Below are positions 46,823-48,911 of a DNA stretch of 64,000 bases, piece by piece. Made by a program: the position numbers and the translations under genes. The notes beneath the pieces were generated by a model. It saw only the letters and a list, made by a program, of their open reading frames with translations. It searched no databases and was not told where the DNA came from. Source of the stretch: an uncultured Chlamydiales bacterium. Lineage in GTDB: Bacteria; Chlamydiota; Chlamydiia; Chlamydiales; FEN-1388. Each line of letters begins with the position of its first letter. Within the stretch, counting starts at the first letter, position 1. The DNA lies in the NCBI GenBank assembly GCA_963785335.1, contig CAWAUW010000002.1:168952-232951 (forward strand), read 5' to 3'.

Positions 46823-46906
46823 TTAAAAAAACAATTCACCGCGAAGCTCGCGAAGGCAGCGTAGAAAAGAGAGCTCTTCTCTACCTTTTCGTGAATTGTT
46901 TTTTGT
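46823..46906. repeat. Palindrome with CGCGAAG words (family F5)
   Basis: AAAAAACAATTCAC...GTGAATTGTTTTTT outer arms. Inner CGCGAAGCTCGCGAAGG and GTAGAAAAGAGAGCTCTTCTCTAC. Confidence 0.7.
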
Positions 46907-46938
46907 TTTTTTAATATAGAACTGATAGGATTATTAGC

Positions 46939-48699
46939 ATGATTATTCAATTTCTTTTTGTTTTTGTATGCTCTATCTCTGTTTTATTGGGATCTTCTTT
47001 TTGTCATAAAATTACTTCATATGAAGACTTTGAAAAGCACTCAAAACTAGTTGATAACGAACGTTTTACTAAATTTGTTCTGGATTTGCAAAATGATACT
47101 ATTTACTACTTTGATGTAAATACTTATCCAATGCATGTCGATTTTATATTTAAAGAATTATATAAAAAACCTGTATCATTCCCTCTTTATGATGAATATG
47201 TAAAAAATTATTCTGAAACAAAACCTCAATTTCTCTTTTGCTATTTGATACACCACATCAAACACAATCTTTGGACGCTTGCCCTTTGGGAAGGTGACAA
47301 GGCAACTAAGCTTCATATCCAAAAGGGCTTTGCAGCACTCTCTAAATCGTTTTATTTAGTCCAAAATGTACTATTTAGACCTACATCTAATGCCCAGGAA
47401 GTAATGGCAAAAACCCTTGAGAACATTGCCATAGTAACCAATGATGATTTGTTTTTACAAAGTGACTACCAATTACTTAACGCTGGAATATCTGTAGGCA
47501 TATTGCGTATTGCAAAAGATAACATCAAACAAGACTATAATGAGGATGAAATAATACTCCTTCCAGAACTTATACCTGACACTTCTTGGGTTGCGGGTAT
47601 TATTACCGAGCAGTTTTCAACTCCCCTATCACATCTTGCTCTGCGCGCACGTTCCTGGAATATTCCTCATGCTGGGATTAAAGAAGCCGCAAGTCTTTAT
47701 GCAGCACTTGATGGTCATTATGTATACTTTGAAACACTCTCAAGCGGCTATATCTTGCGTTTGGCATCCGAGAAAGAAATAAAGCTCTACAACAACAATC
47801 TCAAAAAACCAGGCGACATCGTACTGCCCGTGGCAAATGTTTCTGAAAGTCGCCTTAAAACAATACATGAGCTTGAGCGCCAAGACTATCTAGCATATGG
47901 GACAAAAGCCGCAAATCTTGGAGAATGCACAAAGCTTGCTGTACCAATTCCACAAGGTTTTGCCATCCCCTTTTATTACTACGAGGCACATGTTAAAAAA
48001 AGTGGGCCTCAACACATACTTTCGCATCCGCTTGATCAAGAACTATTAGATGAAGCTTGGGAAAAAGCTCAAAATCTCTTTAAAACAGGATTTTTTGTAC
48101 GAAGCTCCACAAATGCCGAAGATCTCGCCTGGTTTAATGGCGCAGGACTATACGAAACAGTAGCCAATGTAAAAGACAAAAAAAGCCTTGAAATGGCCAT
48201 CAAGACCGTGTGGGCAAGCATATACAATCCCAAAGCCATCAAAGAAAGAGAGCGTTATGGAATTAATTCTGGCAGCGTTTATGCAGCTATACTAATACAA
48301 GAAAGCGTTGATGCCACAGCTGCCGGTGTCCTTGTAACAAAAGACATTTTTGATCCTACCGAAGATATGGAAGTATACACTATAAATGCCTCCCATGGTC
48401 TTGGTTTAAGCGTCGTAGAAGGAGCAATGATCCCTGAGCAGCTTTTATACAACTTTGACAACAAGGGCATAAAAGTACTTTCCAGAGCAAGCCGCGGCCC
48501 TATTTGCGTTTGTGATGAAACAGGCGGCCTTAAGCTTATTTCCAGCCCGGAGGGACCTGTGCTAACTGATGACCAGGTAACAACCCTTGGCAATACAGTA
48601 CATCGCATAAAACGTCTCTTTCGCGCCGCGTATCCCTTAGACATTGAATGGCTTTTTAAAGATGACAGTCTCTACATCGTGCAAGTACGACCTTTTTAG
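46939..48699 (+). CDS. Secreted protein with a PEP/pyruvate-dikinase N-terminal type (PPDK_N) ATP-grasp domain and no phosphohistidine or PEP-utilising domains
   Basis: Signal peptide MIIQFLFVFVCSISVLLGSSFC. YGTKAANLGE, FFVRSSTNAEDL..FNGAGLYETV, AAILIQESVDATAAGVLVT and ASHGLGLSVVEGAMIPEQ match the PPDK_N pattern. The protein ends right after the domain. Confidence 0.6.
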   Translation: MIIQFLFVFVCSISVLLGSSFCHKITSYEDFEKHSKLVDNERFTKFVLDLQNDTIYYFDVNTYPMHVDFIFKELYKKPVSFPLYDEYVKNYSETKPQFLFCYLIHHIKHNLWTLALWEGDKATKLHIQKGFAALSKSFYLVQNVLFRPTSNAQEVMAKTLENIAIVTNDDLFLQSDYQLLNAGISVGILRIAKDNIKQDYNEDEIILLPELIPDTSWVAGIITEQFSTPLSHLALRARSWNIPHAGIKEAASLYAALDGHYVYFETLSSGYILRLASEKEIKLYNNNLKKPGDIVLPVANVSESRLKTIHELERQDYLAYGTKAANLGECTKLAVPIPQGFAIPFYYYEAHVKKSGPQHILSHPLDQELLDEAWEKAQNLFKTGFFVRSSTNAEDLAWFNGAGLYETVANVKDKKSLEMAIKTVWASIYNPKAIKERERYGINSGSVYAAILIQESVDATAAGVLVTKDIFDPTEDMEVYTINASHGLGLSVVEGAMIPEQLLYNFDNKGIKVLSRASRGPICVCDETGGLKLISSPEGPVLTDDQVTTLGNTVHRIKRLFRAAYPLDIEWLFKDDSLYIVQVRPF

Positions 48700-48720
48700 C
48701 TTTCAGTGCTTTTTGTATTT

Positions 48721-48911
48721 ATTCACCGCGAAGATCGCGAAGAAGCGAAGAGCTTAACCCTTTTTTTATCGTTCTTATCGTTCTATCGTTCTTATCGTTT
48801 TAGAAGCCACATGTTATTTAAAAAAAATTTAATGATAAGAACGATAGAAAGATAAGAACGATAAAAAAAATAATCAAATCCTTCCCTTTCTTCGCGATCT
48901 TCGCGGTTAAT
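48721..48911. repeat. Nested palindrome: F5 (CGCGAAG) outer arms enclosing an F1 (TATCGTT) palindrome
   Basis: Outer arms ATTCACCGCGAAGATCGCGAAGAAGCGAAG / CTTTCTTCGCGATCTTCGCGGTTAAT. Inner arms TTTTTTTATCGTTCTTATCGTTCTATCGTTCTTATCGTTTTA / TAATGATAAGAACGATAGAAAGATAAGAACGATAAAAAAAA. Confidence 0.85.

Follow-up and report, generated by a model that had tools for sequence, protein, structure and literature searches.

Does the presence of two look-alike hairpins on either side of a single gene mark that gene as mobile cargo? This question is raised by a locus in a 64-kb stretch (39% G+C; here termed the window) of the genome of an uncultured Chlamydiales bacterium, where the gene for a dikinase-like protein lies between two elements built from the heptamer word CGCGAAG, one of which carries a palindrome of TATCGTT words in its loop. 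Our analysis indicates that the CGCGAAG and TATCGTT elements are probably non-coding, hairpin-forming dispersed repeats, resembling either the repetitive extragenic palindromes and bacterial interspersed mosaic elements (REP and BIME) or the miniature inverted-repeat transposable elements (MITEs), that occupy three spacers of an old gene block in which the dikinase gene is a resident. The features at the centre of the locus are as follows.

46822-46915, unstranded: left element, a weaker hairpin in the divergent spacer between the leucine-rich repeat (LRR) gene and the dikinase gene

46834-46856, plus strand: single CGCGAAG-word unit, with head ATTCACC followed by CGCGAAG-CT-CGCGAAG

46861-46884, unstranded: inner mini-palindrome GTAGAAAAGAGAGCTCTTCTCTAC

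46939-48699, plus strand: dikinase-like gene, an open reading frame (ORF) of 586 amino acids (aa) with a PPDK_N domain

48721-48911, unstranded: right element, an inverted pair of CGCGAAG-word units, 191 nt

48761-48869, unstranded: TATCGTT-word hairpin, comprising a T-run and four words, a 31-nt loop, and four words and an A-run

The coordinates and sequences of both elements given in the initial annotation of this DNA were confirmed. The arms of the right element (48721-48744 and 48888-48911) are 24 nt in length and 96% complementary. Their sequence is ATTCACC-CGCGAAG-AT-CGCGAAG-AA, and a degenerate third word extends the left arm to 48750 and the right arm from 48881. The element begins 21 nt past the stop codon of the dikinase gene, and is followed by the T-rich run TTAATTATTCTT. 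The TATCGTT (F1) hairpin of 109 nt has 39-nt arms (48761-48799 and 48831-48869) that are 95% complementary. It is concentric with its CGCGAAG host (centres 48815 and 48816), and the host loop extends 10 nt beyond it on one side and 11 nt on the other; it is complete and central in the loop, as had been described. RNA folds were compared with those of shuffled sequences, and the right element gave a folding energy of -88.5 kcal/mol with a z-score of -14.3; none of 200 shuffles was as stable. Both the 191-nt and the 109-nt element have the terminal inverted repeats on a non-coding sequence of 70-300 nt that are expected of a MITE. There is a candidate target duplication at the ends of the right element, TATTTATTC / TAATTATTC, matching at 8 of 9 positions and adjoining ACC...GGT.

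The left element is a less stable structure, with a minimum free energy of -27.8 kcal/mol (z = -3.5). Its outer stem AAAAAACAATTCAC / GTGAATTGTTTTTT has perfect 14-nt arms (46826-46839 and 46891-46904) that are extended imperfectly to 46822 and 46915. The CGCGAAG arm is present in the left half alone, where the unit at 46834-46856 can form a 5-bp mini-hairpin of its own, CGCGA-AGC-TCGCG. No CTTCGCG words are found in the right half of the element, and the interior palindrome GTAGAAAAGAGAGCTCTTCTCTAC, which is paired in the fold, is unrelated to the CGCGAAG family. The left element is therefore a half or degenerate member of the family, not a full copy.

The two elements have in common a 22-nt head (the 46834-46856 unit against 48721-48742), identical at 21 of the 22 positions. 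With up to three mismatches allowed, ACCGCGAAGNTCGCGAAG occurs three times in the window where 0.06 occurrences would be expected, and every one is at this locus, so that the three CGCGAAG-family arms of the 64 kb all fall within 2.1 kb. The proposal that elements of one family lie on both flanks of the gene thus holds for one shared arm, the sequence of which is similar far beyond chance, but the left flank has only half an element.

Such an arrangement might suggest a mobile cassette or composite, in which the two CGCGAAG elements border a unit that brought in the dikinase gene, or that can move or delete it. The shared head is in direct orientation on the two sides, a 38-nt inverted match of 79% relates 46827-46864 to 48881-48918, and all of the family arms of the window are gathered here. 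Yet the flanking elements (93 and 191 nt) are non-coding and are not the two transposase-encoding insertion sequence (IS) copies of a composite transposon, no recombinase or transposase was found among the scanned ORFs of the window, the left copy is half an element, same-family adjacency is not enriched (see below), and a direct repeat of this length is too short for efficient homologous recombination. Furthermore, five related contigs have the gene in the same orientation and with the same neighbours, but without the elements. We consider that there is very little chance that the gene is such a cassette.

The conserved neighbourhood includes the following additional features.

45779-46750, minus strand: LRR (F-box-LRR-like) gene, the divergent neighbour; 323 aa from ATG 46750, with Pfam LRR_6/LRR_4 domains, matching the gene call on a Logan contig

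48962-48990, plus strand: promoter-like site TTGCAA-17-TATACT, between the hairpin and the tsaD start; a consensus match only

48998-49993, plus strand: tsaD (tRNA t6A transferase subunit); the start ATG at 48998 agrees with the N-termini of relatives

49991-50132, unstranded: CACAGAG/CACTGAG-word hairpin, with 36-nt arms at 49996-50031 and 50097-50132

50205-50342, plus strand: membrane ORF of 45 aa with the hydrophobic core MANRDIILSIIVLAGIGWLLFENY..., aligned by eye to ORFs of 43-46 aa in L072-L074

In three contigs of Chlamydiales relatives (L072, L073 and L074; 57-63% identity) the order is a 950-aa gene (minus strand), the LRR gene (minus), the dikinase gene (plus), tsaD (plus), the ORF of 43-46 aa, an FKBP gene in L073 and L074, and a PEGA gene (minus). 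A fourth (L071, 62% identity) keeps the upstream half of the block, and a fifth (L076, 50% identity) keeps zwf-opcA-pgl, a 988-aa gene (minus) and the dikinase gene, as found in the window at 37135-46939. An ortholog of the LRR gene (LRR_FBXL15) is at the equivalent position in L071-L074. The downstream limit of the conserved block is marked by the 45-aa ORF, between tsaD and the FKBP gene; it probably encodes a genuine small membrane protein, of a size that ORF lists with a 60-aa cut-off miss. Since neighbours and orientation are kept in the Chlamydiales relatives, the dikinase gene is ancestral at this site, i.e. a resident and not cargo. Its description as an accessory gene cannot be sustained when order and orientation are kept in four Chlamydiales contigs (57-63%) and the upstream neighbourhood in a fifth (50%). 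We also rejected phase variation or inversion at the inverted arms, since there is no invertase in the window and all relatives have the identical orientation. In L071, the closest NCBI relative, an RGS-domain gene and a Tn5-type transposase gene (8451-10149) break the block after the dikinase gene, with a CACAAAG-word hairpin between them.

The spacers of the block differ greatly in length between the window and its relatives. That between the dikinase gene and tsaD is 298 nt in the window, compared with 28, 30 and 37 nt in three relatives, and no hairpin was present in the two orthologous spacers inspected. The spacer between the LRR and dikinase genes is 188 nt as against 81-112 nt in L071, L072 and L074, and that between tsaD and the small ORF is 211 nt as against 47-54 nt in relatives; the orthologous spacers of L071-L073 contain no hairpins. 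In each case the excess length is approximately the size of the hairpin. Because the spacers of the relatives are short, and free of hairpins where inspected, the hairpins would be later arrivals, three consecutive spacers each having gained one in the lineage of the window. The sequence TATACTTACA of the promoter-like site is also present in the 28-nt dikinase-tsaD spacer of L072. In the third spacer, the right end of the CACAGAG/CACTGAG hairpin is GGTTAAT, as in the CGCGAAG element. The stop codon of tsaD (TAA, 49991-49993) falls within the head ATAACCAC of this hairpin, so that the inserted repeat may supply or overlap it.

The gene between the elements was described at first as PPDK_N-like with a secreted product, and both descriptions agree with what was found: it is a real ORF of 586 aa with a PPDK_N domain, and a signal-like leader is seen by inspection at its N-terminus, as in nearly all of 27 aligned homologues, among which those from Myxococcota have lipoboxes. 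It is a fair reading of these sequences that the product is exported. After the leader come an N-terminal domain that matched no named family, a segment resembling a phosphohistidine domain (TPLSH, with His232) and, at the C-terminus, an ATP-grasp domain (PPDK_N). The C-terminal half is of the PEPS/rifampin-phosphotransferase type (Pfam PPDK_N, 1.3e-42; Foldseek E = 5e-21 to rifampin phosphotransferase). Residues 208-272 gave matches to PEP-utilizers and GWD1_pHisD that are weak and below the cut-off, and His232 is invariant in 28 sequences. The protein has the ATP-grasp domain and what appears to be the swivelling phosphohistidine domain, with its catalytic histidine, that together define the PEP-utilising dikinases (PEPS, PPDK, rifampin phosphotransferase and glucan-water dikinase), in the order of glucan-water dikinase (phosphohistidine and then ATP-grasp, by Pfam naming) rather than that of PEPS. 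Structure prediction with fold search gave no named match for the N-terminal 200 residues, and confirmed the ATP-grasp half only. There are 3,330 scored homologues, the closest of which (57-63% identity) come from Chlamydiales assemblies. We note that the proteins P0002-P0120 form a widespread family of dikinase-like proteins of 560-700 aa in Chlamydiales, Myxococcota and others, having a signal peptide or lipobox, the invariant histidine and the phosphohistidine segment before the ATP-grasp domain. Export would be odd for an ATP-dependent enzyme.

If the gene is a resident, is its bracketing by one family nonetheless special, as the initial annotation proposed? An all-against-all comparison of the 34 spacers of the window gave four families. 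Five spacers carry TATCGTT units and five carry GGAGTGCGG-type palindromes; CGCGAAG and CACAGAG are found in two each. On shuffling the labels of the four families, adjacent same-family pairs were not in excess (2 observed, 1.29 expected, P = 0.38), which was the result named in advance as counting against the idea, and nor were pairs within two spacers of each other (3 observed, 2.54 expected, P = 0.47). Adjacency of the CGCGAAG pair alone among the 34 spacers has P = 0.06. Note that shuffling on the scale of the window has low power. At the level of the superfamily the bracketing mostly reflects a run of occupied spacers, since the spacer after tsaD also has such a hairpin (49996-50132).

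Occupied spacers are indeed common. The window contains 52 inverted-repeat pairs with arms of up to 97 nt, and strong hairpins are present in approximately 17 of the 33 spacers of at least 44 nt, including all of the larger convergent spacers, many co-directional and few divergent ones. Many of the arms are arrays of heptamer words with a period of 8-10 nt behind a short head. Units with a single arm are found at 8925-8958, 301-345, 41985-42030 and 46834-46856, and relatives of the TATCGTT hairpin at 48761-48869 occur at 253-381, 8925-8958 (single) and 21356-21468. Within the 64 kb the CGCGAAG family is present at two loci and the TATCGTT family at five, all extragenic. The gene content is that of an ordinary chromosome (kdsB, pyrG, ruvX, zwf, pgl and tsaD, together with Ank, LRR, PTP and PP2C proteins), and there are no tRNA genes in the window. 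Assignment of the DNA to Chlamydiales agrees with the kdsB-pyrG arrangement, with synteny and with the names of the closest homologues. No Rfam family was found at the gathering score anywhere in the window; matches of a long hairpin to plant miRNA precursors (Rfam, E <= 1) were far below threshold and were set aside as due to hairpin shape alone. A de novo scan of the sequence for periodic 6-mers with one mismatch allowed was too noisy.

Several other places in the window have striking architectures. Two convergent spacers (13840-14656 and 41968-42698; 817 and 731 nt) are nearly filled by four or five concentric palindromes, with fold energies of -367 and -314 kcal/mol and inner and outer centres that coincide within 0.5-6 nt. 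The other bracket of the initial annotation consists of palindromes with 97-nt arms (29810-30117 and 32463-32689; 90-95% mutual identity) around two genes, an unknown gene at 30231-30920 and a tyrosine phosphatase gene at 30971-32320. At 55668-55833 the gap between two convergent stop codons is filled exactly by a palindrome that is near-perfect, its 80-nt arms being 6 nt apart, and a relative of 98% identity lies 48 kb away at 7274-7458. Long near-perfect palindromes are unstable or hard to replicate in bacteria with active SbcCD nuclease. Paralogous genes for AAA_14/DUF4143 ATPases (9002-10351 and 27099-28349) are each beside hairpin-bearing spacers. A gene of the RPE65/carotenoid-oxygenase type on the minus strand is divided between two ORFs (51550-52362 and 52481-52978, covering profile positions 4-133 and 192-469) with a gap of 118 nt, and is probably a pseudogene or an interrupted gene.

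Copies are 88-95% identical to each other, close to the 85-96% complementarity between arms. The arm mismatches show no significant strand bias in a test for RNA selection (13 versus 8, G:U against A:C), and most are non-wobble. The sequences therefore fit copied DNA that is decaying neutrally, and not an RNA stem that is held by selection.

The mismatches bear on a further explanation, in which the hairpins are functional structures that evolved locally, the right one as a terminator, insulator or mRNA stabiliser and the left one as an operator or 5'-untranslated-region structure, and are alike through nearby copying. The right element is well placed for such a role, 21 nt past a stop codon and before a T-rich run. 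A terminator scan flagged TCGCGATCTTCGCGG+TTAATTATTC as terminator-like, with a consensus-type match that ends at 48906 and is followed by TTAATTATTC. Hairpins are concentrated in convergent and co-directional spacers, and closest-relative copies tend to be near one another. In several other phyla the CGCGAAG unit begins 8-14 nt past the upstream stop codon, and is co-oriented with the gene. By contrast the left element lies between divergent start codons, where there is nothing to terminate, the arm mismatches have no G:U bias towards the transcribed strand, and the relatives manage without a hairpin at these sites. In other genomes, moreover, the units are present in many copies and interrupt assemblies, as a selfish repeat does, although function and selfish spread are not exclusive of each other. 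We regard this explanation as unlikely overall, but with a modest chance of being correct.

The same units are found in other genomes. Chance should give about one match to ATTNACCGCGAAGNTCGCGAAG, with its 20 fixed bases, in the 596 Gb of one-per-species genomes; 70 loci were matched in these genomes, of which ~43 are non-coding arrays. Approximately 22 of the 70 were set aside as a conserved coding stretch in Acidobacteriaceae (DIDREDREVE...), and a few others are also coding. In the loci L002, L009, L011 and L012 and ~18 more from Acidobacteriaceae, a 22-nt string is read in frame (...DIDREDREVERREMEDLDG...), sometimes after GATATT repeats, and this is a coding coincidence. A 17-base pattern gave 37 matches in viral contigs, of which 36 fall in coding sequence (T-A-K-x-A-K) of high-GC phages, leaving one true array. 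By itself, then, the doubled word has no diagnostic value, and so only matches with the head, the third word or a partner arm were counted. The third word is present in 36 of 49 distinct CGCGAAG units, and an inverted partner arm ending in GGTNAA in at least 20; to the left of the ATT there is no conservation in the units.

CGCGAAG arrays occur in four metagenome-assembled genomes (MAGs) of Chlamydiae, one of which has 11 matches, many at contig ends with identical flanks. The other hosts include Opitutaceae and other Verrucomicrobiota, Planctomycetota, Anaerolineales and other Chloroflexota, Myxococcales, Gemmatimonadaceae, Bacteroidota, Firmicutes, Pelosinus, Thiobacillus and others. The word-array units occur in at least ten phyla besides Chlamydiae. 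Contamination during binning does not explain this distribution, because the G+C content of each contig matches that of its host. In close relatives of the organism of the window there are similar hairpins elsewhere, at far fewer per kb; one of these is built of GATCTT words, like that of the window at 42511-42637. A BLAST search of plasmids and phages with the right element gave no match. No account of these elements emerged from full-text searches of the literature for the word strings and for chlamydial repeats of the palindromic or MITE type.

Two of the MAGs are particularly informative. In K940_chlam_3 (L001, L004, L025, L028, L038 and L041) a repeat of more than 250 nt, CTCGACTTTAGC...GGCTTTAAAA together with a four-word CGCGAAG array, is present in at least six copies, often at contig ends. 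Its left end is always at one point in CACAGAG, CGCAGAG or CTCTGTG arrays, in six contexts. The repeat starts at a fixed point in the arrays, and therefore word arrays are insertion targets. In K940_chlam_7 (L013, L020, L051 and L064) there are four CGCGAAG hairpins, each within an outer palindrome with ends GGGGTCTGAACGG..., which may resemble the inverted repeats of the Tn3 family.

The TATCGTT pattern is of low complexity, and many of its 116 metagenome matches are chance or coding. The four-word array is nonetheless found in at least 20 metagenome contigs of 36-53% G+C. Some arrays are single and others are paired with an inverted partner, in either polarity, and concentric combinations with GCAGAG, CAGGAT or CGCAAAG units recur. 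In L151 a TATCGTT unit lies in the loop of a CACGAAG-word hairpin, an architecture like that of the right element. In Ga0207072 near-identical composite copies, with their loops included, occur many times, and composites are thus copied as wholes within some genomes.

These distributions bear directly on the view that no mobile element is involved, template switching during replication and slippage of the short words having created each palindrome where it now lies, with a convergent resemblance. Arms made of tandem words could indeed grow by slippage. Loops are unrelated between copies, and neither a transposase among the scanned ORFs nor a consistent target duplication was found. Convergence would, however, have to account for the recurrence of 20 fixed bases in unrelated genomes, ~40 times more often than expected and with head and third word unchanged, and for near-identical composites, loops included, at many per genome in Ga0207072 and K940_chlam_3. 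Furthermore the outer arms belong to dispersed families, and not to the local flanks. An origin in place has in our estimation only a small probability.

Several observations weigh against dispersed mobile repeats. No transposase, REP-associated tyrosine transposase (RAYT, or TnpA-REP) or integrase was found among the ~50 ORFs scanned in the window. In a test for target duplication on 20 full copies, the direct repeats matched at 4.55 of 8 positions compared with 3.96 in controls, which is no better, although in L062 AATGATTC is present on both sides of the element. The loops are unrelated both between the copies of the window and between genomes, unlike a classical MITE family. Insertion has been deduced from spacer lengths in species whose proteins are ~40% diverged. 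Lastly, two of the three closest-relative pairs lie within two spacers of each other (P ~0.04, post hoc), which hints at local duplication or short-range copying rather than independent arrival; if the CGCGAAG copies of the window were the only ones in the genome, their adjacency would call for a local explanation.

We still consider dispersed repeats to be the probable origin of these elements, and suggest how they might spread. The building block is a unit of ~20-40 nt, comprising a head (ATTNACC or a T-run) and two to four heptamer words with a period of 8-10 nt. The left element shows such a unit on its own, and the right element an inverted pair, which makes a long hairpin; different units are often stacked concentrically. 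Spread might be by copy-and-paste, through an enzyme acting in trans that reads the words or the folded single strand. REPs are mobilised by enzymes of the HUH/RAYT type, and tandem short repeats beside a hairpin are the usual layout of HUH nuclease recognition. New units would preferentially enter a hairpin that is already there, at its apex, and the two neighbouring CGCGAAG copies may have resulted from a short-range event. As a side effect, the -88 kcal/mol hairpin would, when transcribed, probably end the dikinase transcript or insulate it from tsaD. In the relatives, where tsaD is 28-37 nt downstream, the two genes are probably co-transcribed.

What then does the locus signify? The specific bracketing is ordinary. 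With about half of the spacers bearing hairpins, resemblance between the elements on its two sides does not make a gene a cassette, and it is synteny that decides. It is the sharing of identical word units across phyla that deserves to be followed up. It is possible, though we hold it as a tentative idea with the balance against it, that word-array units are a pan-bacterial class of modular non-coding repeats, with (CGCGAAG)n and (TATCGTT)n common to Chlamydiota, Verrucomicrobiota, Planctomycetota, Chloroflexota, Myxococcota, Bacteroidota and others. Were this so, the drift of spacers, loops and pairing around conserved words would indicate a widespread reader of words acting in trans, and horizontal spread between phyla; the reader might be a nuclease or transposase of the HUH type, or else a protein that binds DNA or RNA. 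If the sharing across phyla holds, it would give a handle on an unrecognised activity that mobilises or binds repeats, and would explain many breaks in metagenome contigs. Environmental Chlamydiae are usually described as repeat-poor or IS-driven. The window contrasts with this in its long multi-layer palindromes, such as that with 80-nt arms 6 nt apart, and in hairpins that expand the spacers within otherwise tight, probably co-transcribed pairs such as dikinase-tsaD.

Comparison with known systems begins with those that are most distant. The attC sites of integrons are imperfect palindromes that can flank single genes, and the dikinase gene might be viewed as a cassette in an attC cluster without integrase, the ends ...AAC and GTT... 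faintly recalling attC core sites. But xATTCAC / ATTAACC and GGTTAAT fail at the pyrimidine and purine positions of RYYYAAC / GTTRRRY, no intI is found in the window, and the neighbours are housekeeping genes (tsaD, zwf) in mixed orientations with conserved synteny that includes the flanked gene. Many unrelated palindrome families, concentric within one another, are also foreign to such a cluster, and we find this interpretation scarcely credible. The Rickettsia palindromic elements are similar in being palindromic repeats that proliferate in an obligate intracellular bacterium. They are often in frame within genes, whereas the elements here are extragenic, except where one overlaps the tsaD stop codon.

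The cyanobacterial short tandemly repeated repetitive (STRR) heptamers are also intergenic heptamer repeats. Arrays of the direct repeat TAACTGA have been found in spacers of Beggiatoaceae, Cyanobacteria and Bacteroidetes (PMC4679880). The resemblance lies in spacer arrays of two to six heptamers, and in a patchy distribution across phyla that suggests horizontal spread with no evident mechanism. However, the TAACTGA and STRR arrays are direct repeats, mostly just 5' of start codons, without hairpin pairing, while the words here are 1-3 nt apart, headed, and usually in inverted pairs after stop codons.

Much closer in form are the MITEs (Correia/NEMIS, RUP, ERIC and Nezha) and the BOX elements, which are non-coding, 70-300 nt in length, with terminal inverted repeats and strong folding, multi-copy and assembly-breaking. 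They insert beside genes and are co-transcribed with them, and BOX elements are modular, with internal modules that vary in number (in part after PMC3733652). The elements here differ in having no consistent target-site duplication, no parent IS with the same ends in the window, and loops that are not conserved between genomes. The composite copies of Ga0207072, which have their loops in common, are an exception with respect to the interior.

The REP, BIME and REPIN elements differ from ours in carrying a GTAG/CGTC tag, in place of which the heads here are ATTCACC/ATTAACC or a T-run; the only GTAG (46861) is paired in the mini-palindrome. The arms here are tandem heptamer arrays and not one stem, reaching 97 nt with four or five concentric layers, and no RAYT was seen among the ~50 ORFs scanned in the 64 kb. 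REP families are mostly specific to a species or genus, while the units here are common across phyla. Yet in their organization the two are closely alike. In both there are single units and inverted pairs, head-to-head or tail-to-tail, with a variable spacer between partners, and REP dimers inside longer palindromes are documented (PMC3733652). The doubled CGCGAAG word forms a 5-bp mini-hairpin, like the stem of a REP. Like REPs, the elements here appear to lie mostly 3' of genes in convergent and co-directional spacers. In both, several families are present in one genome, and both are targets for other insertions.

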